This document shows positions 23,354 to 51,504 of a stretch of 64,000 nucleotides of DNA, piece after piece. The notes under the pieces are model-generated. The model was not told the DNA's origin. It worked only from the letters and a program-made list of their open reading frames with translations, and searched no databases. A program made the translations under genes and the position numbers. The stretch lies in NCBI RefSeq assembly GCF_036321535.1, contig NC_087436.1:11098001-11162000 (forward strand). The letters are read 5' to 3'. Positions within the stretch are counted from its first letter, which is position 1, and each line of letters begins with the position of its first letter. Origin of the DNA: Camelus dromedarius (taxonomy: Eukaryota).

Positions 23354-24757
23354 CTATAGCAGTGAATCTGAGGGACGACAAGTTTGTGAATGCTCTAGGT
23401 TTGTGAAAATGTTAAGCAATGGAGTTACACATGTACAATAAATGATGTACACTCTTATCAATTCTTGGAAACCTGAATGAACTATTTCAGGAAATAGGAG
23501 CATTTTGATGGCATGAAGGGGCAGGAAAATTACATTTGCTTACTCTGTTCTAAAGCCAGCGTGTTATTGGTACTCATGAATGCATTAATCCCAGAGGCTA
23601 TGATGGGAAGGCAGAATTATAACACTGCTGGGTAGCATTTACGATGTCTTTCGTGATTTTTCTAAAGAGAGAAATTCTTTTTTATTGGTTATGCATCACA
23701 GGAGTACTGTAAGATGGGACAATCTCCTTATCTTGACAGTATATTCAAATCCACTGACACATCACATGGGCTTCACAAGGTCACAGAAGAGCTATCAAGT
23801 GACAACGTGCAAAGTTAGAAACAAACTCAATTCCTGCATTGGGAAAGAGCCACACACAGCAAAGCATTTGTCATTGATTAACTCGGCAAATTAAGACCAG
23901 TATGGCTTCCGGTTTCACCAGTGAGGAAAATGCAACCCAGATAAGTGAAATGATGTTAGGCTATGCCGCTGAAGAAGCTGTGGCTGGAATCTCACTAACT
24001 GCACAAGGTTGCAATTTATGAATATATGCATTCTTTACACTAAAGACCATACTTTCTCAAGACAGAACACCAGCTCCACAGCATGGCTTTTGAAGAGACA
24101 GAATTGTTCTTTTTTGTGTCAGTGCACATTGAAAATGGATTAAACCAGGTTCCCTGGTTCCAGTAATGAAGAGAATTTTTTCCCATATAGGCATAGTATC
24201 AATTTTTTTTATAATACATCAGTGTAGAAATGAAACAAAAGAACACAAAATAATTTACAAAGTGTATCCATTTTTGTAATACCCAATGTATAACGGAAAC
24301 AAAAGAAAACAAAAACTATTTACAAAGTTTTTTAATACTGTGCACCAAAGAAAAGAATTAAATATTCCATTTTTACATTCCATTATCTCTAAATATGTAT
24401 TCAGTGAGCTAACTGAATGTGTTTTGGATTTTCTAAAGTGTAGCCAACAATAGAAAAGACAGGGAGAAAGGAAATGAATCCACTTATAAAACCATAAAAA
24501 CATATATCCTCAAGCACAGGAACTGTCAGCTCAATAAAGACATTTACTAAAAGAAAAGGAACTTCAGGAAGGAATCACACAGCCTAGAACAGAGGATGTT
24601 TTCCAAGAAAGCAAAATACACGTTTCAACAAATATTTAGCAAAACAACAACAAACTTAAATACTCCAGAAGTTTGCATGTTTAATTCAGGGGGAAATCCT
24701 ATATCCAATGAGAAACATGATGTTCCAAAACACTGAAGTTATTTTTTCTTCTTTCAC

Positions 24758-25095
24758 TCTCGGTTAAAGAGCTGGTTGTGCACATGATTATGTATTTGCA
24801 GAGACAAAACGGTTGCCTTTTCCTTTAACTGTATAATGTAACCTTTAACTGTATAATGTAACAGTGGATTCAGGGCCGGTTGAAGATTTCCATCAGGACT
24901 GTTCCCAAAGCTTCCAACTCCATTAAAATGAAAAATAGCATTAAAATGTATAGTTCTTGACACAGAGAATGTTTTACAGTTATCGCCCATCCATATTGCT
25001 GCCAGGCAGCAATGTTCAAAGTAGCCGCAGAGTTACTTCTCGGGTAAAGCAAAGTGGCAGCTGATATAAATAGCTCCGTTATTTACATGTCTCCC
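24758..25095 (-). pseudogene. Candidate exon, about 338 nt including a 20-bp internal duplication; two near-open frames
   Basis: Acceptor gcaatgcag, donor GA|gtgaaa; overlapping minus-strand ORFs 24754..24990 and 24870..25052. Confidence 0.35.
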
Positions 25096-25199
25096 CTGCA
25101 TTGCTCGAGAAATGAGCAAGTAAGACATTTGTGTTGTTTTGTTTGCTTTATTTTTCTCCACATTAGAGGCTTTTCACCAGGCATGTTTAAGTCGTTCAC

Positions 25200-25335
25200 C
25201 TGAAGAATGAATTCATATCCCAAATCAATTAGTAGGTAAATCCTCAGCCGTGTAACTGAAACTACAATCCAGACTTTAGATCAAGAACGCAGTCGGCACA
25301 TCCAATAACAGCAACGCGGAATCCGGTGGCAGTTC
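25200..25335 (-). pseudogene. Candidate exon, 136 nt: ELPPDSALLLLDVPTAFLI*SLDCSFSYTAEDLPTN* (frame ambiguous)
   Basis: Acceptor aactctctcag after a pyrimidine tract, donor CAG|gtgaac; locally CpG-rich. Confidence 0.45.
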
Positions 25336-25662
25336 CTGAGAGAGTTTTAAAGGACAAAGAAAAACTAACTCCACATAAATCAAAAGAGTACTTAGAAGGA
25401 TAGAGGTAGAGAAAATGGTAACCAAATAGGTAGGAACAGGCAAAAAAGTTTATTGGAATGGAGAGGAGAGAGAAAAGGTAGTGGGGTAGGATTGTGAAGA
25501 AAGCAATAAATTAAGTGGAAGACACTAGAATATATTATCGTCCTTCTCATTATATACTAGTGCCACCAAAAAAAATTGTTTTCCTGACTGAGTTTGTTTC
25601 TATCAGCAGTTTCAATGGGTGAATTGTCTGTGATGGTGATGCCTTGAAAGATTTACACGTGC

Positions 25663-25687
25663 ACACACACACACACACACACACACA
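25663..25687. repeat. (CA)n microsatellite
   Basis: Seen directly; another (CA)n lies near 8364-8387. Confidence 0.9.
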
Positions 25688-25778
25688 GAAACAGGTCTCG
25701 TGCTGGGAGCATTCCATAAAGGAAGTGGTTTGTCTGTTACCTTATTCTGGACATCAGAAACATCACAAATATCCTCAC

Positions 25779-25918
25779 CTTGGCCAGCAAATTCAGTTTC
25801 TCTCCTTGATAAAAGCTGAATGAGAAGTTTCTAACCAGGGCTTGTAAAGACTCACAAAGGATGAGGCAGCACGTGGAGTTCCGTGGAAGATGACATCACC
25901 ACCTCATCCCCGTCCAGC
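25779..25918 (-). pseudogene. Candidate exon, 140 nt, phase 1-0: WTGMRW*CHLPRNSTCCLILCESLQALVRNFSFSFYQGEKLNLLAK (alternative exon end at 25856 gives LDGDEVVMSSSTELHVLPHP)
   Basis: Acceptor cttcaccttccag; donors AAG|gtgagg or TT|gtgagt; original frame ambiguous. Confidence 0.5.
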
Positions 25919-26791
25919 CTGGAAGGTGAAGTGGAAGGCAATGTTCCCCTTGCATTTCTTTTTCACTTTGCTGACACACCCGGAGGGTGAATGCTCCAAG
26001 TGTGGATGGTTTCCAGTTGTTCAGTCTTCCCTGTCTATGCCGACCTGGGAAGGCTTTCTTTTTTCTGCTCTGCCACCTCCCTGGTCTTTGAAAGAAAGAA
26101 CGCAACTGCAAGGTAACTGTAATCAGAAAGCCAACCACTGTTTTCGAACAGCCTTGATTTGACATGCAGTAGAAACTAGAGATAAAGCACTAAGAGAAGA
26201 TTATAAATAGCAATTCACCAGCCCACCCACTCCCCTGTATTAACAGTCACGTCCAGTGTCTGAGTGCTTAAGAGCAGTCTGACTCGACTAGCCACTTCAG
26301 AATAATATTTTCCAGCACAAAAGTTAAGGGATTTGGTCTTCTGTGTCTTATTTGAGCTGTTATCTATATATCAGTGAAACAGGAAAAGTACGCTGGACTA
26401 CTTCCAAATTGAAAATCCTCTCTCCTGGCTCAGCAGAGAGGAGCTCTCTAGCCCATCGTGACTCTGTTCACAGAGTAAACCCCGTCCTGTCTACTCAACT
26501 CGGCTTCTCCTCCAGAGGACGTGGGAGCAGATGCATAAGCCAGTGAAACTTATCCTTCCCGGCCAGACTTAATTCCTTCGTTTACTCCTTTCAGCTAGTC
26601 TAGCCCATGGTCAAGGCTACTCTAGACTTTACAGATGATCTGAAATCTCCCAAAGTGTTAACTTGTTTGATGTAGATTTCTGGTTCACATACAATTATTT
26701 TCTGTATCAAATTATTCAATGTGGTCTCTCTCCCACTCTGAACAAATGCCACCCACACCAATGCTCTGGGTAAAAATTCCAACCTACTTAC

Positions 26792-26930
26792 TTGTCTCCT
26801 GTTTTGATATTTAATTCTCACTACTTTAGGCAATATATGAAAATAAATCCTCATCTTCCAAGTCACCATCTCCTTCATGAAGCATTCCATGATTTTTACA
26901 TTGAGTTGTTTCTGCTACTAACTTCTGCAC
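26792..26930 (-). pseudogene. Candidate exon, 139 nt, phase 0-1: VQKLVAETTQCKNHGMLHEGDGDLEDEDLFSYIA*SSEN*ISKQET
   Basis: Consensus acceptor ttcccttctttcag|G and donor CAA|gtaagt. Confidence 0.55.
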
Positions 26931-27006
26931 CTGAAAGAAGGGAAATCAGTTTCGGAACTCGATGCTATATACTGGGCATTCCAAAATCTCTGTTTCTAAA
27001 ATATGT

Positions 27007-27046
27007 GTCTACTGCCACACCACCCTGAATGCGCCCGGTCTCATCT
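27007..27046 (+). pseudogene. 3'-truncated 5S rRNA retrocopy (first 40 nt)
   Basis: gtctactgccacaccaccctgaatgcgcccggtctcatct versus 5S GTCTACGGCCATACCACCCTGAACGCGCCCGATCTCGTCT (5 mismatches); flanked by direct repeat tctaaaatatgtgtct. Confidence 0.85.
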
Positions 27047-27370
27047 AAAATATGTGTCTGGCATGTTTCTTATATCTTGAAAAACACAATAATTATTTGT
27101 AAATAATGTTTGAGTTCACTCAATATAAAGAAATAAAAATTAAAACAAGCTATCAATGTTGGCTTATAAAACTAGCAAATTATTAAAATTAATTAATAAT
27201 AAATTAATAAGTTCAATTAAAAAAAACTAGTGATTAAATGGTAAAATGTGCATTCTCGTGGTCCTCATTGGCCCAAAATAGTGAATCTACTCAAAAAACA
27301 CAGACTTCCTTTCTTTTAAAGCCTGTTTATCTTAAGTAAACCCAAGTCCTGCTAACTCATTCTGTCTTAC

Positions 27371-27602
27371 TCCCTCTAACAATATGAATTGATTATCTTC
27401 AAAAAAGTCATCAAAAACAAAAGTAAAGAACCCAACTTTATTATCCTTTTAATAAAGCAGAGATATAGTAAATTTACCACCATCAAAATAAAAAGCTATT
27501 AATTAGAACTCTTTGTGTATGTTGATGACAGACAATTTATTATCCCAATTCTCCAGGACCTTCGTAAAGAATTTTTTTAAATTCTTATCAACACACTGTT
27601 GC
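27371..27602 (-). pseudogene. Candidate exon, 232 nt, phase 2-0: QQCVDKNLKKFFTKVLENWDNKLSVINIHKEF*LIAFYFDGGKFTISLLY*KDNKVGFFTFVFDDFFEDNQFILLEG
   Basis: Acceptor ttttattatcatag, donor GGA|gtaaga; phase matches both neighbours; two TAA stops. Confidence 0.55.
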
Positions 27603-27715
27603 CTATGATAATAAAATACAGAGAAGTTCCTAGTATTCTAACTTAATGACACACAAAGGAGATGTCACTTTGTCATGCAAAGGTGCTCCTGCCCCTCGTT
27701 CACTGACCCTCTTAC

Positions 27716-27826
27716 AGGTGAGATAATACCCCTTCTAATCTGAGCAAGCAAAGAAATTCAATGAATGTCACTGTAGCCAGAAGTACGGAATCATCCAAGT
27801 TGGACAAGAGCTGGGACTGAGAGTTG
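27716..27826 (-). pseudogene. Candidate exon, 111 nt, phase 2-2, open: NSQSQLLSNLDDSVLLATVTFIEFLCLLRLEGVLSH
   Basis: Acceptor acgtttttag, donor CCT|gtaaga. Confidence 0.55.
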
Positions 27827-27893
27827 CTAAAAACGTAGCAGCAAGGGAATTAACGAAATGAAACACGGTATAAAAGTATTTGTAGTCTCTTAC

Positions 27894-28058
27894 TGTCTAA
27901 ACTTCATCATATGCAGATTTGAAAACATCCATCAAGAAGAAGCATCTGGCAAAGAGACTGTATATCAAACAAGGATGAGGAGATTCCAAATAAGGAGTTT
28001 GTGCCTCTATCTTTGCAAAGAAAACCTCTTTCTTATCTGCAAAGCTGGGTTTCTTTAT
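27894..28058 (-). pseudogene. Candidate exon, 165 nt: IKKPSFADKKEVFFAKIEAQTPYLESPHPCLIYSLFARCFFLMDVFKSAYDEV*
   Basis: Strong acceptor ctctctttctctcatag, donor ACA|gtaaga; 53 open codons then TAG. Confidence 0.6.
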
Positions 28059-28094
28059 CTATGAGAGAAAGAGAGAGGGGAATGCTGTTAGCAA

Positions 28095-29265
28095 TCACTG
28101 AACGGATGAGATATGGAGAACAGGGTGAGTATATCTGACCTGTCAGATTGAATTGGCGCTTCATAAGGAGAAGAGATAGAAGAGAGCAGAGAAAATATTT
28201 GGAGAGATAACAATTGAAAAATATCCAGAACCGATTCAACACTCCAAGACACAGATTCGAAAAACCACGTGAACATTTAGCAGAATTTCTTTTTTTAACG
28301 TCATTTCATAGTATAGCTAAGAAACATGACAAAGAACATAGAAAAAGAGAAACAAAGAGACAAAAAGGATCTTAAAGTCAACTCAAGAAAAAAGAAAAAT
28401 TACTTACAAAGAAAGAAGTATCAGACTGACATCTGATTTCCCAATAAAAACAATACAATCTAGAAAACAGTGGAATTGTATTTTCAAAATGTTGATAGTA
28501 ACAACTCACCATCTAGAAGTCTGTAAACAGCAAAGCTACCTTTCAAAAAAAGAATAAATCATGTCTTTTCAGACCAAACAAATGAGAGCTTATAATTTAA
28601 AAATCTCCACTAAGCTTTTAAGGAATGTTTTAGGATTTTTAAAAAACCCCAGAAGGAATAAGTAAAATGTACCCCCCCCAAAAAAAGACAAATGAACAAA
28701 GAAAATGGTAAACATAGTGAAGTCTAAATAAATGATGACTGTATGAAGTATCAGTTGATGTTAGAGCATTTAGAAAGTCCTTGTTTGGTTTGGGAAGAGA
28801 ATAAAGTTATTAGACATAAACTTAGTTGTATGTAATATGCACATTTAATTTTTTAGCGTAACAGAGTTTCCAAAACAATATAATTTTCAAACCGGGAGAA
28901 AATGGAACAAACCCAAAATCTAAAAAAATAAAATTTTATCCAAGAAAAGGCAAGAAAGAAAAACAAACACAGAAAATGTAGGATAAATAGAAATAGACAG
29001 CAATAACTTCAAACTGATCAAATGTATATATTTTTTATGCACACCAATAACATAGTTTCAAAATACATAAAGCAAAAAAATAAAGAAACTGAATCTCAAG
29101 AAGAAACCGACAAATATAATACCAGGGCAGATTTTAATACAGCCTTCTCAGTAATTGATATTGATTCCTTGAAGTAACTACTCCATTTCTAAATTTTGAA
29201 ACTTAAAAAACATGCTTCTATATAATTCATGGTTTCACAGCTAAAAATTAATTAGCCAATTTTCT
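28095..29265 (+). mobile_element. Old L1 fragment (ORF1 to early ORF2, L1MC/ME-like)
   Basis: A-rich degenerate ORF1-like motifs (gaaaatatttggagagataacaattgaaaa; tcagactgacatctgatttc). Confidence 0.6.
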
Positions 29266-29278
29266 CACTTAATAACTA

Positions 29279-29296
29279 GAAAGAAAGAGAAAGAAA

Positions 29297-29388
<92 letters not shown>

Positions 29389-29448
29389 AGGAAGGAAGGA
29401 AGGAAGGAAGGAAGGAAGGAAGGAAGGAAGGAAGGAAGGAAGGAAGGA
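29279..29448. repeat. Compound (GAAA)n(GGAA)n microsatellite
   Basis: Seen directly; about 170 bp of pure purine sequence. Confidence 0.95.
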
Positions 29449-30639
29449 GAATGAAGAAAGAAAGACAGACCAAAACAAGCCATTTACTCCAAAATCTCCA
29501 AAACTGCCTGTGCTTGGAGGTGGAAAATATATCATGTTAACTGTAAGATTACAGTTCAAGGAATGACAATTCAATTCCTTGTCCCCTTAAATCCATGAAT
29601 TTACCACTCTGGAGCCACTTCTATGTCATTTGTAACTACCATCATGATATCTCTCAACTGACTCGACAGCACAGACAGAGAACCCAAAATTTATGGAGCT
29701 TCTACTGCCCTACATGTTTACACATAATATTTCATTTACTTTTCCTGTAACTGCCTTTCTGCAGATGAAGAAAATTATAATTAAAGAGATTAAACCAGCC
29801 ACCCGTGGCCATCCATTTCCTGGGTGTCCATCTACATGGTTTGCACAGAGGATTTCTCTCCATTTAACTCTAACAGCCCGGTTATCTGGGAATTGGAATC
29901 ACTACATCACCCTGGAGGGCAAAAGAGACAAGTCACTATAGATAGACTTTCATATTTTTTAAATAAAATAATATGTGGAAACTAAGATATGTAGTTGTAT
30001 TTGGAAGAAATATATTTATAATTATTAATTGTGAGATATTTTCACATTGATTGGAAGGGTCAAAAATGATGTAACAATGGTATAAATTATCAAAAGTTGC
30101 GCATCCCCTAAAAAGACGTCAATCAGAATAACAAAACTTTTTACTTCTTTAAGTTGGAAAGGTCATATTTCTCGTTTATTATTCCCCTCATAGAATAAAT
30201 TGACTTAATTTCTTCATTTTTAATTAAATTTTGGCTCACTAATAGTCCATTACTGACAAAAGTGGCATAATTTATTGTTTTATAGGGAAGAATAAAATAT
30301 GCAAGTTTGTCTTCAGTGACAATATATTCTATTTAGTATTTGGGTGTGATCTCATTTTTCAGTAATAATTTCTCACGGACATTTAGAGCCTAATTCGCCA
30401 GGAAACTCAGCTGTGAGGGAAAATGTCATATTCTCCTTCCCTAAGGCCTTCCTAACTTCCGCAGTGAATATATTATCCTACTTTTAGCCATTTCATGATA
30501 GTCCAGTAACATTTCAGCTTGTTCTAAAAATAAAGAACTTTTAATGAGAATCACCAAGATATTTCAAAGCTGGTCTAAAGGTGGTGCTATCTCACTGGTC
30601 TCCTGGGAGTCCCTGCCTGGTTCACACCTGTCCCTTTAC

Positions 30640-30818
30640 CTTTGACCCCAACTGTCTCTTGGCCATAACTGAATATTTATAACTTGTTAAAAATTGTTTC
30701 TTTTCACTTTTGTTTCCTTTTTTCTGAACTGTCTGATTTTGCTCATCTCTGGGGTGCTTCAATTTGTAATTCTGTGGAAACCAGCTGGACTGCTCATTTT
30801 TGACATTATCCAAAACTT
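30640..30818 (-). pseudogene. Candidate exon, 179 nt, phase 1-0, open: EVLDNVKNEQSSWFPQNYKLKHPRDEQNQTVQKKGNKSEKKQFLTSYKYSVMAKRQLGSK
   Basis: Acceptor ttttattaag, donor AAG|gtaaag; coincides with ORF 30622..30813. Confidence 0.5.
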
Positions 30819-30909
30819 CTTAATAAAACTTGAAAAAGTCTCAGCTTTCATACATGCAAGTTTAAGTCGTGGTACCGTAAATTAGAACCTATCAGGCTAA
30901 GATACTTAC

Positions 30910-30943
30910 CACCACTTTTCAACCCTAGCAAACAGACCGAGGT
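30910..30943 (-). pseudogene. Candidate small exon, 34 nt, phase 0-1: TSVCLLGLKSG (alternative 15-nt form 30910-30924)
   Basis: Acceptor gccttatcag, consensus donor GTG|gtaagt; phase matches both neighbours. Confidence 0.45.
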
Positions 30944-30977
30944 CTGATAAGGCATTTATGAGATGTAAAGAATGAGC

Positions 30978-31229
30978 TGGGGGAAAGAGGTGGAAAGGAA
31001 TACATTTGGGAGTTTGAGATTTGCAAATGTTAACCACTATATATAAAAATAGATTAAAAAATAAACTTCTTCTGTACAGCACAGGGAGCTATAGTCAATA
31101 TCTTGTAATAACCTTTAATGAGAAAGAATATGGAAATGAATATATGTATGTATATGCATGACTGGGACATTGTGCTGTACATCAGAAATTGACACATTGA
31201 AACTGACTATACTTCAATTAAAAAAAAAT
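30978..31229 (+). mobile_element. L1 3' end
   Basis: tgggagtttgagatttgcaaatg...ctgactatacttcaattaaaaaaaa. Confidence 0.8.
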
Positions 31230-31509
31230 GAAAGGAGCAGAACAGAACAGGTTCAGATTTCAGTATCACCACAACTTTGACAGCAGGACAGAATATTTTA
31301 CGAACTTAAACTAAAGATCCCCTTGGAGGAAAAAAAATCCTTCAATCATGGCATCATAGAAGGCATAATATCACACCACAGAGCAGCAAGTGTGGTGCTC
31401 ACTTTGCCTTAAAAATACAAAACATAGTCTGTGGACTGATTTTATGAGTCATCCCTGTGTCTGCAGACAAGACTGTAAGGTGATCATCGCGACCCGGTTA
31501 GCACCATCA

Positions 31510-32025
31510 ACCTTCTCCCCGCCCCCACAGGAGCAATGATCTTTTTAAAATATCAGTTCTGTATTCAAGCCTTACAGTGTTTTTCCGTCTTGGTAGAATA
31601 AAATCCAAAATGCTGACCAGAACCTGCAAAAACTAGTCGTGACCCGGCCCCTGAGGTCCTCTCTGATGTCATCTACTTCCACTGCCTCCAGCTTCTTTAG
31701 GTCCAGCCACGGAGGTCCCCTTGCTGTCCCTCACACATGCCTCAAGGCCATCGTAAAACTCTCACCTCAGCCCCGGATGTGGGGGTGGCTATCCCAGACC
31801 CACACAGCTCCCGGCTGTTTGTCTCAGCCTACCTGCTCTGTTTCTTTTTTCTGCATTTTAGACCTAGAATATAGCTATTGATTTTTTTTTTTTTTTTTTT
31901 TTTTTTTTGGTCTGCCTTCCTCTGCTGGGATGTAAACTGATAAAAATGAAGCCGTTGTTTTGTTCAACGGTGCACTTCCCGCACCTGGAAGAGTATCCGG
32001 CACAAAGTAGGCTCTCAGTAAATCT
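31510..32025 (+). mobile_element. L2 3' portion
   Basis: tgtaaactga...gcacctggaagagtatccggcacaaagtaggctctcagtaaat. Confidence 0.55.
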
Positions 32026-32028
32026 TAC

Positions 32029-32108
32029 CTGAGAATGAAGAAATGCAAAAGTGAGCATAGTCCTCTACTTGGCTCCCATTAGGTATTCAGACAGTATTTC
32101 TGAGTCCT
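32029..32108 (-). pseudogene. Candidate exon, 80 nt, phase 1-0: QDSEILSEYLMGAK*RTMLTFAFLHSQ
   Basis: Acceptor ccctcattacag, donor CAG|gtaaga; phase matches both neighbours. Confidence 0.5.
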
Positions 32109-32468
32109 CTGTAATGAGGGCAAGGTTGTCAATGTGATCATCAGAGAAATTAAGCAGTACTGAGCAGAAATGAATGCTGTTCACACGCTGGTACTCTCTG
32201 ATTGTAAGTTGCACGCAGCCACTCGGGAGGGTATTGGGATAATACAGAGTGAGCAGATTAGGGTAAACACACAAAAACAGAGCAGAGAAAATGGCTCAGA
32301 GAGCATGTACGAACTGAACAGTACGACATCAGATACGTGCTCCTTGAAGCTTGCTATGTTTTAAAAACTGCTGGTCTCAGTCCACCTCCCATCCCTACTC
32401 AGACCAAAAACCTGATTCTACCTGTTGCGGTGTGTTCAATCAAATCCAACAAATTTCACCTCACTTAC

Positions 32469-32936
32469 GATTGAAAACTTTATCTCCGAAAGATAATCAA
32501 GTGCAGATACCCCTACCACAATGCAGTAACTGTCGCTTTGCCACGGCTCTCTTCACCTTCTCGCTGGTGACCTTCCTTTTACAGAGCTCATGTGTGGGAG
32601 AGAGGGAATGGCACAATGGGGGACAAGGGATGGACCTGGCCACCCCTCCTTTGAATACACAGCTGTCCCAGGACTGCTGCAGGGACCTTCTAAGGCTAAG
32701 GAACTCAACTGCTAAGAAACTCAGCTCCATCTCAGAGGAGTCTGGTGTCAGTCCTTCTGTGAGGTGTACTGGAGGGTCTAAGGTGCCCAGCCGAACCCAT
32801 CCTGAAGTCCACTTTTGACCATCTTAAAGGGACCCTCTCATTCCACCTCCTTGTTCTCAGACCCAGAGCATCGGTTCACTCCATAACCTTGGGTGGGATT
32901 GTCATTTAGAAAACTCAGGAGAAGTAGTTACCATGA
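32469..32936 (-). pseudogene. Candidate exon, 468 nt, phase 1-1, four stops: ...GWVRLGTLDPPVHLTEGLTPDSSEMELSFLAVEFLSLRRSLQQSWDSCVFKGG...LLHCGRGICT*LSFGDKVFN
   Basis: Very long polypyrimidine tract ending cttgcctccag, consensus donor C|gtaagt, length divisible by 3. Confidence 0.55.
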
Positions 32937-33214
32937 CTGGAGGCAAGAAGTGAGGAAAGAGGGGGAAAAGGAAGAAAAAAAAAAAAAACAATAAGAATGT
33001 GCCTTTAATTTAGTAGCTTCAGGATGTAGTTCTCAGCTGTGAGCAATCTCTGTTGGACGTTTGCACTTAGCCGTGGACAAGGGAACCAGTCAATACCCTT
33101 GGGGCTGAAAGAGGAAAGGGAATGCATCTCTCCATCACATTTCCTGTCACCAGGTGCAAATATTAACACTAGAGAAGCCCCATCTTCTTCAGAATGCTCC
33201 CGGTAATTTCCACC

Positions 33215-33385
33215 ATATATTATTTATTTAATGCGTACTACATACCAAGCATTGAATAAAGTTTTACAAGTATTATCTCATTTAAACCTTGAGACGATCT
33301 CCTGAAAGAGGTACTTGACATCCATTTTGCACATGAACCAGAGGCTCAGAGGAGCGTGGTAGGGTATTCAAGGCCATGTTGTAGT
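33215..33385 (-). mobile_element. MIR SINE
   Basis: ttatctcatttaa...ccattttgcacatgaaccagaggctcagagga. Confidence 0.6.
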
Positions 33386-33772
33386 AGGTCCTTTTGCATC
33401 CTCTTTCTCCCCACTCCACACTTGCTCTTGCTTTTCCCAGTGTAGCCCAACGTGTCTGTCTTGCAGCATATTGTGTTCTGATGTGCACACAGTGTTTTAC
33501 TGTAGGGTCACTAAAGCAGTGTCGCCCTGATGTCATAAACCACTGAGGCAGTGGCTGCAAATCGACCAGTGTGAGACTTTAAGTCAAGGGCATGTGGAAA
33601 AATGGCGGCATCTGAATTTATTCTGAAGACCTGTTTTGTTTTGACAACATGGTGCTTTGTTTTGATTTTTTTTTAATGTTTTTAGGCAGGTGGTAGGCTT
33701 GTCAGTTTGAAGTTTCTACCACCCCCATCTGATTCACACCCCTGTTGCCTCCACACACTCTCTCCCCCACAC

Positions 33773-33877
33773 AGATTTTGAAAGAACTTGAGGTCGAACC
33801 CTCTGATGAAAGTCAATCATAAATCCATGGAAACTAGTAGTCCTCTGAGTTGTCTGATTTAAAATCGTTGTCTATTC
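33773..33877 (-). pseudogene. Candidate exon, about 105 nt, phase 1-1: IDNDFKSDNSEDY*FPWIYD*LSSEGSTSSSFKI
   Basis: Acceptor gttttctcaatag. The donor is weak (T|gtgtgg), so the 3' end is uncertain. Confidence 0.3.
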
Positions 33878-34105
33878 CTATTGAGAAAACACTTCATTTG
33901 GAAGAGAATGGAAGGGAAAAAAAAAAAAGACCCACAGAAGCTGTTCAAATAGTGGCATGGGTGGGGAAAATTTAGACCTAAGGCCAAAAAGAACTTCTAA
34001 AATAGGAAAAATTAAGTAAAAGTGAACACCACACCAGCTGTCCAACGTTAGGTCTTGATCCAAGTCACAAATGTCAAAAGAAACCAGCACAACTAAAATA
34101 AAACT

Positions 34106-34580
34106 ACAAATCTTCCTCCACTTACCAGGGGTTACGCCCCCAGCCTCCCATTGACAGTGGAATATAGGTAAGTCAAATATGCCTTGAAAACGTCTCACAT
34201 ACTGAACATCCTAGTTTAGCCTCGCTGACCTTACATATGCTCAGAACACTTACGTTAGCCTACAGTTGGGCACAATCATCCAACACGAGGCCTATTTTAT
34301 AATGGAGTGTTGAATATCTCATGTAATTTATTGAATATTGCCCTGAGAGTGAAAAACAGAGTGGCTCTCTACCCTCATGATGGCAGGGTTGCCTGGGCGC
34401 TGCGCTCACTGCCGCTCGCTGGCCAGCATCATGGGAGAGGACCTACCCAGATCACTAGCCCAGGAAACGACTAAAGTCCAAAACTCAAAATTCAAAGTAC
34501 CATTCCTACTGAAGGCCTCTCACTTTCGCAACATCATAAAGTTGAAAAATCGTAAGTCAAACTGTAAACGGAAGACTGCA
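34106..34580. mobile_element. MER47/Tigger-like non-autonomous DNA transposon
   Basis: acgttagcctacagttgggc...gtgttgaatatctcatgtaatttattgaata...gttgaaaaatcgtaagtc, with degenerate inverted termini (acttac/gtaagt). Confidence 0.7.
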
Positions 34581-35898
34581 CTTATTTGATTTTATCTTCT
34601 TTTGGTGTAAGATCTGAGGTATCCCCAAGTTTGTAGCTCTCTTTCCACGAGAGCTCAGTTTCATGTGCAAGAATGACTCAGATCTCCTGCTCAGATTAAA
34701 GCAGATGGAAGAAGTGTCCCCCGCCTAGAACTGGAGTGCAACAGCCCTGCTTGCCAGAGATGCTCTGGTTAAACCTCTGACCCCCTAGACTGAGGCAGCT
34801 CTCCAGATGCTGACTATCTCAACAGGCAGAGACACAGACGATCTGCAGCAGGATCATTGGCTAAATAGTAGATTCCTAGCCACTCCTCTCCCCCCACCCT
34901 CCCTATGCATGATTTCTCAATTGGAATCTCCAATGAGATCTCGGAATCTGCTTTTTAACAAACATCATCATATGCTTTTATGATCACTCACCGTGGGAAT
35001 CACTGCCTTAGACTCAAGCCACAGCTTGCTCTGCCTCACTTCATTTGATCTTGACCTTCCTGAACCTTCAGTTCTTACCAGATTCCTCTTCCTGAAATGA
35101 ACACTAGACACAATGCCTTCAGGTGCCCTCTGTTCTCTTTCTGCCTAATCTCCAGCATAACAAGGTGATTATATTTTATAATTGCTCCTACTGTCCATCC
35201 TCCAGCCTGGTACTGAAATAACTGTCCTGTTAAGTCATCATGAGCAGCGCCTATGAGTCTAGAAACTACAAAGTGGGGTGCTTTTACCAGCTAGCTCTTC
35301 CCTATAAAATGGTGGAAGGAAACACTTCCCAAAGTAAGTGAAGGACAGTCACTTGACAGATACGATAGATCAGGTACAGACACACAATAAATAGTTTTCC
35401 TACCCGGAGGGAAAACAAAACAACAACAACAACTTTGGTGGATTTGGTGCCTGCCAACCTTTAAATCTTTATGAGGAGTAATTTATTTTATGGTTCCTTC
35501 CGTTGTATCCTTGCAATCAATGAGCAAACTATTGCATTACATTTGCCCAGTTTTTCTATCAAGACCACAGAATAAATGAGCCATTGAATGACTAGGTATA
35601 TATTGTTTTTAAATAGATTGAAAATGTATGTAAATAATTCTGTCTCCTGAGCTTAGGTGGTGTACAAAGATGTTTAAGGGTGATCACCATAATGCAAAAT
35701 TCATGACAACTCATTTGCTGTAATAGCAACTCTGAGTCACAATGAAGAATTGAAGACACATAGAGGAAACAGCTTCAGTAGGAGAGTGACCTATGAGTAC
35801 AAAAATTTTTTAAGTCACCAAGTTCTCTGTTAACCTCAGTAGCACAAGGGTTGCACTGTCATTTCGTCCCAGGTGGCCAATTGTAATGCAGGCCTCAC

Positions 35899-36036
35899 CA
35901 GAGAACTGAAATGCACTGGTTTGCAGCACATGGCATTCTGTACAAGTCTCAGAATTGTGGAGAATCTCCGATGGTGGTGGAAAGGTTAATTTTCCCAGTG
36001 TCACATCCCATTAGAACACACACCATTCCACGTCAG
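35899..36036 (-). pseudogene. Candidate exon, 138 nt, phase 1-1: DVEWCVF*WDVTLGKLTFPPPSEILHNSETCTECHVLQTSAFQFS
   Basis: Acceptor tgtttgttcag, donor TG|gtgagg, one stop; overlaps ORF 35810..36004. Confidence 0.45.
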
Positions 36037-36364
36037 CTGAACAAACACTGATTCTGCAAACAAAACAAGTAATAATGATAAAGGACAGCAGTAGGTAGAG
36101 AAGCTAAAGAGCTAATTTGAAGAATAGCACTCAACCTTTCTAGCAGGTAACTTGGAAAGAACTATCAAAATTCTAAGCTGCACGTATCTTTTGACTGTCA
36201 GAAACGTATTTGCACTAACAAATAAGATGCATATATAAAGCTGTTCATAGCAGCCTTATTTGCAATTAAAATCCTTAGAATACTTTAAACTTTAATCTGT
36301 ACAAACTAGGCTAAAAATCCAGGGTATCTATTCTACTGAGTGGCCATTAAAAAATATGTATAAT

Positions 36365-36949
36365 GTGATCCAGCGACCCCACTCGTGGGCATATATCTAG
36401 AGGAAAATAGAATTCGAAAAGACACATGCACCCCAGTGTTCACAGTAGCACTATTTACAATAGCCAAGACATGTAAACAACCTAACTGTCCATTGACAGA
36501 TGACTGGATAAAGAAGTCGTGGTATATTTATGCATAATGGAATACTACTCAGCCATAAAAAAGAATAAAATAATGCCATTTGCAGCAATATGGATGGACC
36601 TGGAGATTGTCATTTTAAGTGAAGTTAAGTCAGAAAGAGAAAGAAAAAATACCATATGATATCACTTATATTTGGAGTCTAAAAAAATAGGACATAGATA
36701 AAGTTATCTACAAAAAAGAAATGGACTCGCAGACATAGAGAACAAACTATGGTTACCACTGGGTAAACGGAGTGGGAAGGGATAAATTAGGAATTTGAGA
36801 TTTGCACCTCTTGGAGAGTGACGGAAATGTTAGCTATCTTGATTGTGGTGGTGGTTTCATTGGTCTATAAATCTATCAAAATTCATCAAATTATACATCT
36901 GAATTATGTGTAGTTTACTGTACAGGAATCATACCACAATAAAGGTGTT
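36365..36949 (+). mobile_element. Young L1 3' fragment inserted in an older L1
   Basis: ORF2 end and 3' UTR; 15-bp TSD aaaaatatgtataat (36350-36364 and 36950-36964). Confidence 0.85.
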
Positions 36950-37394
36950 AAAAATATGTATAATAAAGCAGTATCATATTTATTGACTGGACCATTATCT
37001 ATGCTGTATTATCAAGTGAAAAAGTAAGTTGTAAAGTATTATTATGTTTACACTTGTGTATGAACATGTATATATATATAATGCTTCTATCTGTACTGGA
37101 AGCTTCTGAAAATATATGCATGATGCTGGTAAACACAACTACCTTTGGAAGTTGCAAATGAGGGATCCAAAAGACTTGGGTGCTTTCAATCACCACTCTA
37201 TTCTTCTGTACTATTTCAGCATTTTTATTTTTTACTCTTAGCCTGTATTGATTTGAAATAAAATTTATTAAAGATCAAAATCTCTGATAACACACAATCT
37301 TTGATAATATTGATAACATGTGAATAGTAGCATAAAAATCCTCATATATTGCTGGAGAAAGTGTTCATTGATAACATTTTCATGGAGGAAAATT

Positions 37395-38599
37395 TGGCTA
37401 TTGTACATAGTTCTGCTACAAACATTGGGGGTGCATGTATCTTTTTGAACTAGAGTTTTTGTCTTTTCTGGATATATGTCCAGGAGTGGGATTGCTGGAT
37501 CATATGGTAAGTCCATTTTTAGTTTTTTTAAGGAACCACCATACTGTTCTCCAGAATGGTGGCACCAATTTAAATTCCCACTAACAGTGTTGGAGGGTTC
37601 CCTTTTCTCCACATCCTCTCCAGCAATTATTATTTGTTAACTTGTTGCTGATGGCCATTCTGACTGGTGTGAGGTGATACCTCAAGGTAGTTCTGATTTG
37701 TATTTATCTAGTAATCAGTGATGTTGAACATCTTTTTATGTACCTGTTGGTCATCTGTATGTCTTCTGTGGAGAAATTTTTATTTAAGTCTTCTGCTTAT
37801 TTTTTGATTGGGTTGTTTGGTTTTTTTAATATTGAGCTGTATGTGCTGTTTGTATATTTTGGAAATTAATTGCTTACTGGTCACATGGTTTGCAAATATT
37901 TTCTCCCATTCCATAGGGTGTGTTTTCCTTTTGTCAATGGTTTCCTTTGCTATGAAAAAGCTTTTAAGTTGAATTAGGTCTTACTTTTTTTTTTTTTTCC
38001 ATTACTCTAGGAGATGGATCCAAAAAATATTGCTGCAACTTATGTGAAAGAGTGTTCTGCCTGTGTTTTCCTCTGTAAGTTTTAGAGTATCCAGTCTTAC
38101 ATTTAGGTCTTTAATCCATTTTGAGTTTATATTTGTATATGGTGTGAGGAAATGTTCTAATTTCATTCTCTTACATGTAGCTGTCCAATTTTCCCAGCAC
38201 CAGTTATTGAAGAGACTGTCTTTTCTTCATAGTATATTCTTGCCTCCTTTGTCATTAATTAACTGACCATAAGTGCATAGGTTTGCTTCTGAACTTTCTA
38301 TCCTGTTTTATTGATCTAGGTGTCTGTTTTTGTAGCCATGCTGTTTTGATTACTGGGCTTTGTAGTATAGTCTGAAGCCAGGGAGAATGATTCTTCCAGC
38401 TCCATTCTCCTTTCATCGAGAATGTTTTGGCTATTCGTGGTCTTTTGTGTTTCCATACAAAGTTTAACATTTTTTGTTCCAGTTCTGTGGAAAATGTCAT
38501 TGGTAATTTGATAGGGACTGCATTGAATTTGTGTATTGCTAGGCTCTTTTTAAGTTATTGTTTCTGCCCTGGGTCTCCGAGCATATGAGATTTTGTGTG

Positions 38600-38630
<31 letters not shown>

Positions 38631-39030
38631 CAAAACAAGAGTGGAGTTTGTTTCTGCCGTCTTCTGGCTTTCCTAAGAGCAATCCCATTGGCCTTTGAAA
38701 CCAAGCATTCTTGGGGCTCACACTCCTGGGGCAGCATCTCCAGGCTGTGGAGCCCCGTGTGGGATTTGAACCCCTCCCTCCTTGCGGGGAACCACTGTAA
38801 TTGTGACTACCCTCCATTTGTGTGTTGCCTCCCGGGATGTGGGTCTTGACTACACTGCATGTCCACCCTCCTACCTGACTTATTGTGGTCCCTTCTTTGT
38901 ATCGTTTGTCTTTATATATTTAGATGTTTTCTGTGAGTCCTTAGGTTGCTCATTGATAGTTGCTTTGTAAGCAGTTATAATTTCGCTGTGTCTCTGAAAG
39001 GAGGCACACGGCCTACTCCACTGTCTTCTA
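37395..39030 (-). mobile_element. Internally deleted L1: 5'UTR (about 38545-39030) joined to distal ORF2 (about 37395-38540)
   Basis: ORFs 37268..37612 and 38255..38500 are ORF2-like ([22 protein letters not shown]). The upstream part resembles the 5'UTR pieces near 9.2 and 18.1 kb. Confidence 0.8.
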
Positions 39031-40646
39031 AAAGAAAGTTTTTGAGAAAAAGATTGCTAGTTTCTATCAGATAAAATGCTAGTATCTAAGCGTATCTGAG
39101 ACAACATTATGAGACATCTTTGGGATCTTTAACCCTAAAATTATAGGGTCAATTGAATCAAAAACTCAGACTCCACGTGAGACTCTCTCTTCCCCCTACA
39201 GCACATTGGCTCTAGCTTTTAGGCTTTCTTCCCTCCTCTCTTCTACATCGTCTCCTAGGCTGCCATTTCCATCATCCTGTGCTTCCACAACTCTGGCTGT
39301 TCAGATTTCATAATTAGTTCAAAGATGATAAGTGAAATAATGGTGAATGTGCAAAGTGAAAGAAAAGTAAGCTCTGGAGGCCACTACAAGACAGACAAAA
39401 GTCCTTAGAAAAGAGTATATAGTAGTAGCTATCAAGGTAGGAAGAAAACAGGATTAAGTGATGTTATGGAAACCAAAAGCCAAGTTTGAGAGAGTGGGAA
39501 TGGGAAATGTACCCAAGGGACCAACTAAGACAGAAAAATGTATTGGATTTAGATTTTAATAAGATGAAGAGGTTGATTGAGGGGCAAAAGTGAGGTGAAA
39601 AGTGGACATAGCACTTATCTCATTGCATTACAACTGTCTGGTGACACATCTGTCTCCTTTAAAAAACTGTGAATTCCCCCGGGGCATTGTCTGTTGTCTA
39701 ACTCACATCTGTTTCCTTTGAGGTCTGCACTTGTTCCTTTTTAGCAGAAACAAAATGACTAAATTGTAAGTATAAAGACCTGGAAAGTGAAGAAGAAACT
39801 TGAATTAATACCCTTATTACTACTGTAGATGTCAGTAAGAATAATACAGATCAGTATTTTGTATTCATGTTAAAATCAACACCACTGGAAAACACCATTA
39901 TCCACTCTCTGATGGGAAACCAACTCAATTAATGACCGCCCTTTCCTGAAAGAGAAGGCCATTATTGAGATTTCACATACATTATTACATTATAGCATGG
40001 ATATAAGAGTCTTCTGTTTGCTGATAATAACGCTTTTACATTAGCACTCTGGATAAATGCACTATTCATTTGATTACATAAAATGAATATCACATTGAAC
40101 TGTATTCATATTGACTACACTGTGTGTGCTTTATAAAAGCCACAGGGAGAAGGTTTTCCATACAGATTTTCTGTGCAGCTGAACAGTTGCCATTCTTGGG
40201 TGGTCAAGCACGAAATATTTTAATGCTTCAGATATGACAGACTTTCAGATAACCCAAGTTAGAATAAATAAAGGCATTCTTCTTTTTCCAGAGAGGGTTG
40301 CTTTCCTGCATCTGATCTAAGTTACCATCACAGAGGAGAATCAAGCCACAAAAAGAGAAAAAGCATACTTTGTTCAGCCAACCAGATGAGAACTTTCAGC
40401 CCCTAGTGGAAATATGAATTAAAGATAAGCAATAATAGACTTTGGGAGCTCCCATGAGTCAGTAGGTCAAAACAGATCTGCTGCTTCCTCTCAGCTTGTA
40501 TTTTAATGTGCAGAATAGGATAAAAAACCCATAAATCTTCCAATTTTATCATTCAATTCTTATAATTTATGATCTGCATGAAACACCTTTAATTAGGTCA
40601 GTGGATCCTTCTGATTTCATAAACTACAAGTAAAGTTTGGAAGTTG

Positions 40647-46570: not shown

Positions 46571-47783
46571 AGACTGTCTAACTTCGCATCTCACTCAGTT
46601 CTGCCACCTACTAACTCGAGGACCCTGTGCAATGTCTACATTTACTCATCTTTAAAAATGGAAGAATATTTTTCCTAATTCCTAAGGTTACTGAAGGATT
46701 GAAATTGTTCATCATGCAGAGTGTTTAAAGCAGTTCTTGTCAGCTATTAAGCACCCTATTAGCTACAGCTGTTATGGTTATTACTCATTAACATGAGTTT
46801 AACAAACCTTAAGAGCTCTAGTTGACAGTGAACAGAATATAACTAAATGATATATTGACAAAATAAACCAACTAATTTAAATTCTACTACTTCAATAATA
46901 ATAATAAAGTGAATCAAAGGTGGAAAATAAAACCTCTGATTAATTAATCAGACTTTATTAAGGCTTTATTTATTATACATGGTTCTAGGTGTTTAAATCA
47001 GATATTAGCCAACAAACAGGTTTCTTCAGACAAACACAACCAGAATGTTAAAAATTGTGCTTATAAAGAGAGGCAGGCGGAAAACTTGGGAATGTTTAAA
47101 CCTGGAAAATGGAAAATTCAGGGGCAATAGGATGCCTGCTTTAAAATGTGAAACGTTCTCACATTAAGGCTATTCAATATTTATGTAACAACTGTAAAAC
47201 CAGACTTGGAAGGAAATTAAATAACTTATCTATACAAGACAATGGCTCATATTTAGCAAAGAGGGGAAACAGTTGATGCCACACACAGGGAACTTAAAAA
47301 TATGAACAGAATTGCCCTCTCAAAAACACAATATAATAATAAATTCACACTTCAAATGTGTCTGTAATTAGCATCTCTTACATCTTTTTATTTATGTCAC
47401 TCATTAATTAAGGTGTCTTGCAGGAGACCATATACAAAATGTGTTTAAGTGGTGACTTGCTAAAAATTGAATTTCTTAAGCTTTGCCTTTACTTAAAACA
47501 GAGCAATAAATATGTTACATGCATTAAAACCATAAGGTAGATTTTAAAGTAGGCAAGATTATATAAGGAAAAGAAATGTGAAAATGCTTCCACAATTTTT
47601 CTTCCACATTATAACCTTATAAGATATTTTTTCTTGATGCTACACTCAGCACGGTGCATTAGTCCATGAGATGTTAAATGAATATGTTCCATGAAGATTT
47701 GAAACAGTGGACATCTTCTGTAGCACATTGGATGCAAATATCTTAAATTCCCCTCTAGAAATTGGAATATATACATCATATAA

Positions 47784-47952
47784 TGATGGTACAGGAAAGA
47801 GTAAACCTAGAATTCATCTGTATTTATTACACGTCGTTAAACCAGGAGGGGTTATTGACTATTATTATTGTGATGGTACAGGAAAGAGTAAACCTAGAAT
47901 TCATCTGTATTTATTACATGTCGTTAAACCAGGAGGGGTTATTGACTATTAT
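47784..47952. repeat. Tandem duplication, period 87 bp
   Basis: tgatggtacaggaaagag...gttattgactattat starts at 47784 and 47871, with one C/T mismatch. Confidence 0.95.
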
Positions 47953-48154: not shown

Positions 48155-48858
48155 CTGTGCAAAGGGAAGGAAGTAGACTTTTAACATGTTGAGTGAAATG
48201 TAGCAACTAAAATAACAGAGCACTCATGGAGAACAGGCAATGGTTATCATTGGAAAAAGGAGAGAAAGAAGAGAGGAAACAAAGGAGGGAGGGAGGGAGA
48301 GAAGGAGGAGCTACATTACTGGAAAAGATGAAGAGAGAGAATGGCTTGCTTTCTGTCATTGAGAGAACCAAATTCTTCTAGCTCTTCCTCTGAAATATCT
48401 GAAATTTAATCACTTATCCAAGCAAGGGATTAAGAGTCAAATAAAAGTGGGAGGTTAGGTTAAGAAAATAGAAGCAATCTGAATTTTACAAAGACTACAG
48501 ACTCTCAAAGGAGGAAATGAAAGTCATCTTGACATTACACTCAGCACGGTTCCCACAGAATCTCAAGGTGGGGTCCCGACCTTCTCCAAACCATACTGCT
48601 GCTTCAAATCCCCTTGTCCTTCATTCTGCCTCTCTCCTCATTCTTTTGTTTGTTTGAGACCTGGCCATTGTTCCTTTTCCTTTTTCACCACTTTTCCTTG
48701 TTATATATTTCCTTACTAGGGTGGGTCCCTTCCCAAGCTCAGATCTCATCCTTGCCTACCTTCTTAGGGATCTCAGGCCACTGCAGATTTCCTTTCTGCC
48801 CTCTGTCTTTGACCTCAGTCTTTAGACTGGATTTGCACTATCAACATTCAGCATTCAG

Positions 48859-50927
48859 ATACTATATATAGGAAATCCTAGAAGTTCCACACAAAAACTA
48901 CTAGAGCTAACAAAAGAATTCAGCAAGGTAGCAGGATACAAGATTAATGTACAAAAATCAGTTGCGTTTCTTTACACTAACAATAAATCAACAGGAAAAG
49001 AAAATAAAGAAACAATCCTTTTTAAAATTGCACCCAAAGTAATAAAATACCTAGGAATAAATCTGACCAAGGAAGTGAAAGACTTATACATGGAGAACCA
49101 CAAAACATTGATTAAGAAAATTAAAGAAGATCTAAAGAAATGGAAAGATATCCCATGCTCTTGGATTGGAAGAGTCAATATTGTTAAAATGGTCACACTG
49201 CCCAAGGCAATCTACAGATTTAATGCAATCCCTATCAAATTACCCAGGACATATTTCACAGAACTAGAACAAATCATATTAAAATTTCTATGGAATCACA
49301 AAAGACCCAGAATTGCCAAAGCATTACTGAAGAAAAAAAAGGCTGGAAGAATAATCCTCCTAGACAATACTACAGAGCTACAGTCATCAATACAGCATGG
49401 TATTGGTACAAAAACAGACATATAGACCAATGAAACAAAATAGAGAGCCCAGAAATAAATCCACAGACCTATAGTTAATTAATCTTTGACAATGGAGAAA
49501 AGACAGTCTCTTCAGCAAGTGGTGTTGGGAAAACTGGATAGCAGCATGTAAACCAATGAAATTAGAACACTCCCTCACTCCACACATAAAAATAACTCAG
49601 AATGGCTTAAAGACATAAACACAAGACAAGCCACAATAAATCTCCCAGAAGAAAACATAGGCAAAACATTTCACATACATCTCAGCAATGTTCTCCTAGG
49701 GCAGTTTACCCAAGCTATAGAAATAAAGCCAAAAATAAACAAATGGGACCTAATTAAATTTACAAGCTTTTGCACAGCAAAAGAAGCCATATGCAAAACA
49801 AAATGACAACCTACAGAATGGGAGAAAATATTTGCAAAAGATGAGACTGACAAGGGGTTGATTTCCAGAATATATAAACAGCTCACACAACTTAATAACA
49901 AAAAAAACAAACAATCCAATCCAAAAGTGGGCAGAAAACCTAAACAAGCAATTCTCCAATGAAGACATATGAATGGCCAATAGGCACATGAAAAAATGCT
50001 CAACAGTGCTAATTACTGGAGGAATGCAAATCAAAGTACAATGAGGTATCACCTCACACCAGTCAGAATGGCCATCATTCAAAAGTCCACAAATGATAAA
50101 TACTGTAGAGGCTGTGGAGAAAAGATAAGCCTCCTACACTGTTGGTGGGAACATAGTTTGGTACAGCCATTATGGAAAACAGTATGGAGATTCCTCAAAA
50201 ACTAAAACTAAACTTATCATATAATCTAACAATCCCATTCCTTGGCATATATCCAGAGGGAACCTTAATTCAAAAAGACACATGCACTCCAATGTTGATA
50301 GCAGCACTATTTACAATAGCCAAGACATGGTAACAACCTAAATGTCCATTGACAGATGACTGGATAAAGAAGCTGTGGTGTACTTACACAATGGAATGAT
50401 ACTTGGTCATAAAAAAAGAATAAAATAATGCCATCTGCAGCAACATGGATGAACCTGGAGAACGTCATTCTAAGTGAAGTAAGCCAGCAAGAGAAAGAAA
50501 AATACCACATGGCATCACTTTTATGTGGAATCTAAAAAAAAAAAAAAAGACAAATGAACTTACATATAAAACAGAAACAGACTCAACAGACATAGAAAAC
50601 AAATATGGTTACCGGGGGGAAGGGGGTGGGAAGAGATAAATTGGGAGTTTAAGATTTGCAGATACTGACAGGTATACATAAAATTGATAAACAAGTTATA
50701 CTGTATAGCACAGGGAACTATATTTAATATCTGGTAGTAGCTTACAGTGAAAAAGTATATGAAAATGAATATATGTATATTCATGTATGACTGAAGCAAT
50801 GTGCCATGCCCCAGAAATTGATACAACATAGATAGTAAACTATACTTCAATTAAAATAATAATAATAACAACAACAACAACAATAATAATAATAATAAAA
50901 GACAATACCATTAGTAAAAAAAAAGCC
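48859..50927 (+). mobile_element. 5'-truncated young L1 (distal ORF2, 3' UTR, tail)
   Basis: ORF 49075..49425 ([18 protein letters not shown]...[11 protein letters not shown]) and 49996..50205 are L1 ORF2; TSD ttcagcattcag (48847-48858 and 50928-50939). Confidence 0.9.
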
Positions 50928-51259: not shown

Positions 51260-51504
51260 CCACTTTTCTTTTCCCCTGGAAAGGGTCAGTCATTGATGTT
51301 GGTAGGTCATAGAGAATTTTGCCTTTCATAAGTGGAAGGCTGTCAAAAAAGTCCTTGAACCAAAACAACGACTCTATCCCTTCAAACCTCCAAAATTATC
51401 ACACTTGTATTACAGTTATGGTCCCATACACATCATTTAACTCCTCAGCAAGATTATACCCCTGTAGGGCTCGGACCCGACATGAATTACGCCGATTGGC
51501 ACCC
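51260..51504 (-). pseudogene. Candidate exon: ...GYNLAEELNDVYGTITVIQV**FWRFEGIESLFWFKDFFDSLPLMKGKILYDLPTSMTDPFQGKRKV
   Basis: Donor GG|gtaaga; 81 codons with two adjacent stops; exon start uncertain (51504 or 51461). Confidence 0.4.

Follow-up and report, generated by a model that had tools for sequence, protein, structure and literature searches.

The 64,000-nucleotide stretch of the dromedary (Camelus dromedarius) contig NC_087436.1 that was analysed here (11.098–11.162 Mb, hereafter the window) carries on its minus strand a chain of exons which is interrupted by disabling lesions, exists in a single copy and is located upstream of SMIM31. The initial annotation, made from the sequence alone, described it as 13 phase-consistent exons of a long-dead gene for a large protein. 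The best explanation of the chain is a unitary pseudogene, i.e., the in-place, intron-bearing remains of a single-copy protein gene that is dead in several placental lineages, a reading to which we assign a probability of about 0.7. The exons and the associated candidate features are listed in Table 1.

Table 1. Exons of the chain and candidate features around it (positions in the window)
Feature	Position	Strand	Remarks
Fossil exon	35899..36053	-	Acceptor 36053 or 36036; strong donor; 1 stop
Fossil exon, frame less certain	33740..33877	-	Chain frame is not the fewest-stop frame; 2 stops
Large fossil exon (468 nt)	32469..32936	-	Four possible donors; 4 stops; 108 stop-free codons in the middle
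Fossil exon	32029..32108	-	Strong sites (8.8 and 11.3 bits); also found by the automatic chain finder
Short fossil exon	30910..30943	-	Acceptor weak (0.2 bits), donor strong (9.8 bits)
Fossil exon	30640..30818	-	Acceptor decayed; stop-free; lysine/glutamine-rich
Fossil exon	27894..28058	-	53 open codons, then the only visible 1-nt phase break
Fossil exon	27716..27826	-	Stop-free; preceded by a 67-nt intron
Fossil exon	27371..27602	-	77 codons; 2 stops
Fossil exon	26792..26930	-	Strongest acceptor; P0003 cluster has sense codons at both stops
Fossil exon	25779..25918	-	Sites of 10.9 and 11.2 bits; homologous open reading frames P0006, P0007, P0017
Fossil exon	25200..25335	-	Three stops are E, W, W in P0008 and P0018
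Candidate terminal exon	24754..25095	-	Out of phase from 25095; broken by a 20-bp tandem duplication (24822-24862)
Probable further upstream exon	39707..39779	-	Acceptor 12.5, donor 7.7 bits; frame uncertain
Possible further exon	39848..39945	-	Acceptor 12.9 bits; donor decayed; end uncertain
Speculative second exon	47616..47754	-	Chosen by eye; 46 open codons; sites weak at 3.3 and 1.7 bits
Speculative first coding exon	51260..51329	-	ATG start; donor 7.4 bits; picked by eye
Candidate poly(A) signal	24680..24685	-	First ATTAAA downstream; consensus match only

A weight matrix of consensus splice-site frequencies was used to score acceptors and donors. An AG dinucleotide precedes all 13 of the exon starts given in the initial annotation, and the peptides quoted there were found at their minus-strand coordinates. 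Six of the 13 acceptors score 7.7–13.6 bits and are among the top 3% of the 1053 AG sites in 24500–40000; those at 30943 (0.2 bits) and 30818 (−3.1 bits) are poor, and the remaining five score 2.9–6.1 bits. The 12 donors used (5.0–11.3 bits) are in about the top 10% of 844 GT sites. The start of the first exon had been placed at 36036, where an AG is indeed present, but the acceptor at 36053 is stronger (8.7 vs. 2.9 bits). The introns between the 12 exons of the chain measure 67–2581 nt, and the exon ends carry AG and GT, so that the exon–intron structure is kept in place. The frames stay in phase from 36036 to 25200 with a sole 1-nt break, which falls at the junction of the 28058 exon with the 27826 exon. 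An additional base towards the end of the former would explain both the break and the stop within it. Thus, the claim of a phase-consistent chain holds for 12 exons with this one break, and it fails for the segment that starts at 25095.

The stop count reported for 32936–25779 was reproduced, with 11 stops in 517 codons (2.1%), whereas the other two frames hold 68 stops in 1013 codons (6.7%) and the introns 310 in 5594 (5.5%). Over the whole 12-exon chain, the disabling lesions amount to 17 stops in 646 codons and the one phase break. For 10 of the 12 exons, the chain frame is the one with the fewest stops (ties included). In the shuffle test, the stop count gave P = 0.022 when frames were free only at six ambiguous junctions and P = 0.006 when one free shift was allowed. 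Most of the 10 stops in 26000–33000 are not assembly errors, since 0.98 of the sampled words of this interval recur in five runs, which come from three studies that carry no mark as a possible source. Neutral simulation yielded 11.5 stops at 0.15 and 16.7 stops at 0.25 substitutions per site, compared with the 17 that are seen.

Composition was measured in the chain frame with the stops omitted. Aspartate plus glutamate (D + E) make up 12.1% vs. 8.8%, an excess reached by none of 1500 dinucleotide shuffles, while cysteine, arginine and tryptophan together are reduced to 8.6% vs. 11.6% (P about 0.004). G is more frequent at the first than at the second codon position, a preference with a P of about 0.003 in shuffles and one reached by 3 of 2000 genomic sets. 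A stricter automatic chain finder, run with four penalties, ranked the region such that it was beaten by 2, 0, 1 and 1 of 94 background windows. It recovered several of the exons of the initial annotation, and its best chains also include other segments and frames. The same finder ranked the minus-strand region above the plus strand each time. Taking all of the evidence together, the chain very probably descends from coding sequence.

The copy number was determined with two exon translations, one of them that of the 27894..28058 exon, and 801 bases, each of which matched only itself across the genome; these three queries could miss a distant paralogue. The chain is not a processed (retro) pseudogene, as introns are present, nor, within the sensitivity of these queries, is it a duplicated one, as no parent appears elsewhere in the genome. 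It shows three of the four features that define a unitary pseudogene: an exon–intron structure in place, disabling lesions and no working paralogue in the genome. For the fourth, an intact syntenic orthologue in another species, the protein searches described below gave no match.

For comparison with other species, one frame spanning three exons of the chain was scored against 1.84 billion proteins. This search returned eight matches, all of them short unnamed open reading frames (ORFs) from Logan/ENA contigs. They align with intron as well as exon, so that the simplest reading is that they derive from this locus in other mammals. Several camelid stops are read as sense codons in these ORFs (two of two in the P0003 cluster and three of three in P0008/P0018). 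Frame changes inside an exon were observed in P0004, P0006 and P0008, and the donor sites of P0003 and P0007 look altered, judging from the translations. P0001 is free of the 20-bp duplication that interrupts the camelid terminal frame. P0005 terminates at the stop of the matching camelid frame; provided that this frame was coding, the coincidence suggests an old lesion common to both. The pooled identity to the homologous ORFs is 223/350 (64%) in exon and 137/262 (52%) in intron.

A collinear protein match, which the initial annotation had proposed as its own test, was not obtained in any library tried. The protein collection includes annotated camelid, other placental and marsupial proteins, and it is represented by one sequence per 50% cluster, which lowers the sensitivity. 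Simulated orthologues were recovered in 40 of 40 cases at ≥50% identity, 39 of 40 at 45%, 20 of 40 at 40% and 12 of 40 at 35%. Given the content of the collection and the recovery at 45%, an annotated close intact orthologue is unlikely. Word-indexed searches of longer proteins (up to 2000 residues) confirmed none of 19 candidates for the 77-residue exon, none of 212 for the 155-residue exon and none of 613 for four exons stacked as a profile. In Pfam, 18 + 14 + 6 translations gave a best E-value of 0.14, all far below the cut-off, and the chain translations matched no RING, SPRY or other Pfam family. Two stop-free pieces reached noise-level best scores of 0.77 and 0.82 in the ESM Atlas, and the best E-value of four queries against PDB sequences was 0.37. 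A Neuralized/SPRY relationship obtained an Atlas feature score of 0.81, a value also attained by about one third of shuffled proteins, and neither Neuralized (PF07177) nor SPRY (PF00622) matched in Pfam up to an E-value of 10. Among JGI metagenomes, 1 of 129 pattern matches passed (L026); at the DNA level it does not resemble the window, and it was taken as chance. Among viral contigs, 0 of 4 passed. A chicken gene (ENSGALG00000009509), a lead from a lost-gene table, proved to be CALCR on another chromosome.

Structure prediction from the single sequence of the 77-residue exon (27371..27602) gave a model with a predicted local distance difference test score (pLDDT) of 56, in which a helix is followed by a three-strand meander and a short helix; the pLDDT for the 155-residue exon was 34. 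Fold searches with the 77-residue model remained at noise level (best Foldseek E-value, 0.29; best VIA Z, 3.5, with a root-mean-square deviation of 3.8 over 59 aligned residues). The RNase H-like/MutS connector fold has a five-strand sheet in which a helix follows a three-strand meander. For this exon, a nuclease-like fold (RNase H-type) is an improbable lead, noted by eye.

With regard to transcription, RNA run X17 (reproductive system) contains 0.20 of the sampled words of 26000–33000. Exon-only words make up 0.168 of this interval, or 0.219 with three short introns kept, and the nearness of the two shares is a hint of a putative spliced non-coding transcript. Runs X15 and X16 have shares of 0.33 and 0.30 and may be DNA, and neither X18 (0.17), which belongs to the same study as X17, nor X19 and X20, with smaller shares, were counted.

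Several results weigh against a decayed coding gene. The warning that picking frames by hand inflates the apparent consistency was justified for the stop count: with the frame of each exon left free, 17 stops in 646 codons are ordinary relative to 2000 random genomic sets (P = 0.32) and to 1500 dinucleotide shuffles (P = 0.23). With a permissive automatic chain finder, the region did not stand out (score 114; background, 16–179). Neither purine at codon position 1 (P = 0.87) nor an amino-acid frequency score (P about 0.25) was significant, and the composition measures were picked after the chain had been seen. The 25095 segment is out of phase with 25335–25200, since the frame needed holds 10 stops. 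Neutral decay should give similar numbers of stops and frameshifts, so that 17 stops beside one visible frameshift are odd; the six ambiguous junctions may conceal some frameshifts, or the loss may be younger. The excess of exon conservation that the initial annotation had asked for is not consistent: among the five ORFs spanning both exon and intron, identity is higher in the intron in two (P0003 and P0008), slightly higher in the exon in two and clearly so in one. No intact parent protein was found among the 1.84 billion proteins and the word-indexed libraries, and no splice joints were observed in RNA, where the reads were not placed on the region.

These results bear on the rival explanations. 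Ordinary intergenic DNA with cryptic splice sites, assembled by hand into a chain, would agree with a background that matches the permissive chain score, with the ordinary free-frame stop counts and with the inconsistent exon conservation. However, such a chance chain is hard to reconcile with the stricter finder, which puts the region in the top 0–2 of 94 windows with several of the same exons, with a D + E excess seen in 0 of 1500 shuffles, and with camelid stops that are W, W and E in another lineage, and we regard it as highly improbable. A spliced long non-coding RNA (lncRNA) locus, in which the exons are real and the coding frame is an illusion of frame picking, would account for the strong splice sites, the one RNA run with an exon-sized share and the lack of a matching protein family. 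This explanation is quite unlikely, as it leaves aside the frame-specific composition signals and the stop count, which is under chance with the phases fixed (P 0.006–0.02); moreover, the exon lengths and the introns of 67–113 nt fit coding genes, of which they are typical.

The remaining alternative is a fast-evolving gene that is intact but unannotated in some placentals, and whose losses, in camelids and in other lineages, were separate and more recent. It draws on the few visible frameshifts, the well-kept splice sites, the sense codons that replace camelid stops in the ORFs of other mammals and the higher pooled identity in exon than in intron. On the other hand, most of the homologous ORFs extending across an exon boundary carry damage of their own, an annotated intact copy at placental distance should have been detected, and much divergence is needed for 17 stops; this alternative is therefore considered unlikely. 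The reading as a long-dead spliced protein gene, as the initial annotation had it, is supported by splice sites, phase, the protein-like composition, the presence of only one copy and the independent lesions in apparently orthologous DNA of other mammals. The protein searches neither bear out nor contradict its further suggestion that the gene may be intact in other vertebrates.

As a unitary pseudogene, the locus would make no protein now: a spliced RNA would encounter a stop within the first exons and become a substrate of nonsense-mediated decay. Function was presumably lost at the base of the placental radiation or close to it, some 0.15–0.3 substitutions per site ago, this being the divergence needed in the neutral simulation to yield 17 stops; it is about the distance of camelids to the placental or boreoeutherian ancestor. 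Neutral decay since the loss would have been slow enough in camelids for the splice sites to remain readable. The damage in the copies of other mammals, as far as their translations indicate, fits one early loss or several. The parent gene probably had at least 12 exons and at least 650 codons; should the upstream candidates be part of it, the figure rises to about 790 codons or more. It is conceivable, at somewhat less than even odds, that transcription of the locus and splicing into a non-coding RNA persist in reproductive tissue. As a guess, the ancestral protein might have been a rapidly evolving protein of the germline, in which a charged linker preceded a folded C-terminal half of helical and alpha/beta structure. 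Similarly tentative is the broader proposal that the chain is the fossil of a never-described vertebrate family of about 800 residues or more, which might be intact in marsupials, monotremes or reptiles, was lost at the origin of placentals, and has exons that are still spliced as non-coding RNA in camelid reproductive tissue.

Upstream of the chain, two more exons are probable, given the strong acceptors at 39945 and 39779. Farther up, the 51329 ATG exon and the open 47754 exon also permit an in-phase joint, but both have weak sites and were chosen by eye. Above this candidate first exon, a small patch at 51480–51830 holds several CpGs and GC-box-like words; it is a possible decayed promoter, with a CpG observed/expected ratio of only 0.37 over the kilobase.

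The ab initio exon lists of the flanks named no neighbour, and the names were taken from family searches instead. These placed on the same contig, in this order between 4.6 and 20.2 Mb, an HNOB gene (4.63 Mb), a RINGv exon (10.21 Mb), TMEM192 (11.47 Mb), an astacin gene (12.26 Mb), fibrinogens (12.81–12.85 Mb) and an MH1 gene (20.18 Mb). A CpG island lies at ~10.944 Mb of the contig and was read from its position as the MARCHF1 promoter. From the human gene order, we take the RINGv gene to be MARCHF1, the island to be its promoter and the block to correspond to human 4q32.3. The first coding exon of SMIM31 is located at 11228766–11228900 on the plus strand, ~95 kb past the exon chain and on the opposite strand, and its translation resembles the start of human SMIM31, the coding sequence of which is printed in a supplement of PMC6886504. 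The fossil gene is thus situated between MARCHF1, identified from gene order, and SMIM31, on the MARCHF1 strand. The order APELA–TRIM–TMEM192 is given in PMC10145180. MARCHF1, SMIM31, APELA, TRIM60/61/75 and TMEM192 belong to the same 4q32.3 block, and the fossil gene is none of them. In the human order, the fibrinogens are beside GUCY1B1 and far from TLL1, and cattle and pig are presumably like the camel; the difference between camel and human points to an inversion. A first guess of synteny with human 3q/21 was wrong, as the claudin and scramblase clusters of that block are on another contig.

The closest known counterparts are unitary pseudogenes such as human TMEM274P and the crescent remnant (Mudge et al. 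2019, PMC6886504), which, like the camelid chain, are single-copy exon–intron remains in place with stops and frameshifts; they have an identified intact orthologue, whereas the chain has none so far. The lncRNAs derived from genes with lost coding potential of Hezroni et al. 2017 (PMC5577775) resemble the chain in the possible spliced non-coding transcript over a coding gene that mammals have lost. The supplements of PMC6886504, except for files 1 and 8, contain no MARCH1, APELA or coordinates starting with 1645/1646. Table S2 of PMC5577775 has no human chr4 row at 165.4–165.7 Mb (hg19), and in the tables of that study a single row names Apela; it is paired there with a coelacanth gene, the anchor of which also maps to human chr6 loci, without sequence similarity. 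Nothing on the locus was found in the available portions of PMC10195156 (one supplement), PMC10951430 (12 supplements), PMC6315173 and PMC10445033. The accessible human gene list for chr4:165.30–166.13 Mb (PMC8269103) names no such pseudogene, which is weak evidence, as the list omits APELA too. The literature search, which did not extend to subscription papers and bioRxiv supplements where the locus may be listed, turned up no gene described as lying between MARCHF1 and SMIM31. An index of the scanned DNA gave no neighbouring entry, look-alike or word match either. Apparently, the fossil gene is real, unnamed and of no known family.

Gene-loss catalogues begin with annotated reference genes, so that a gene which is dead there and unnamed elsewhere escapes them, as seems to have happened with this locus, which was spotted from raw sequence alone. 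An intact copy in a non-placental species would mean a new protein family with a dated loss beside APELA and SMIM31, both of which were long classed as non-coding. If a vertebrate family was indeed lost, this would be an overlooked placental gene loss involving a protein of no known family; with no intact copy, it would be an ordinary old pseudogene of modest interest.

Other elements were observed in and around the chain. Two-copy tandem duplications are present at 47784–47952 (87 bp), just above the candidate exon 47616..47754, at 24206–24328 (65 bp) and at 24822–24862 (20 bp). The introns harbour an (AGAA)n array (29278–29469) and fragments at 37268–38560, 48826–50850 and 28200–29200 which we take to be L1-like from typical L1 features, without a repeat library. 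Two overlapping open frames, of 100 codons on the minus strand (55597–55899) and 154 codons on the plus strand (55586–56050), lie in non-repetitive-looking DNA.

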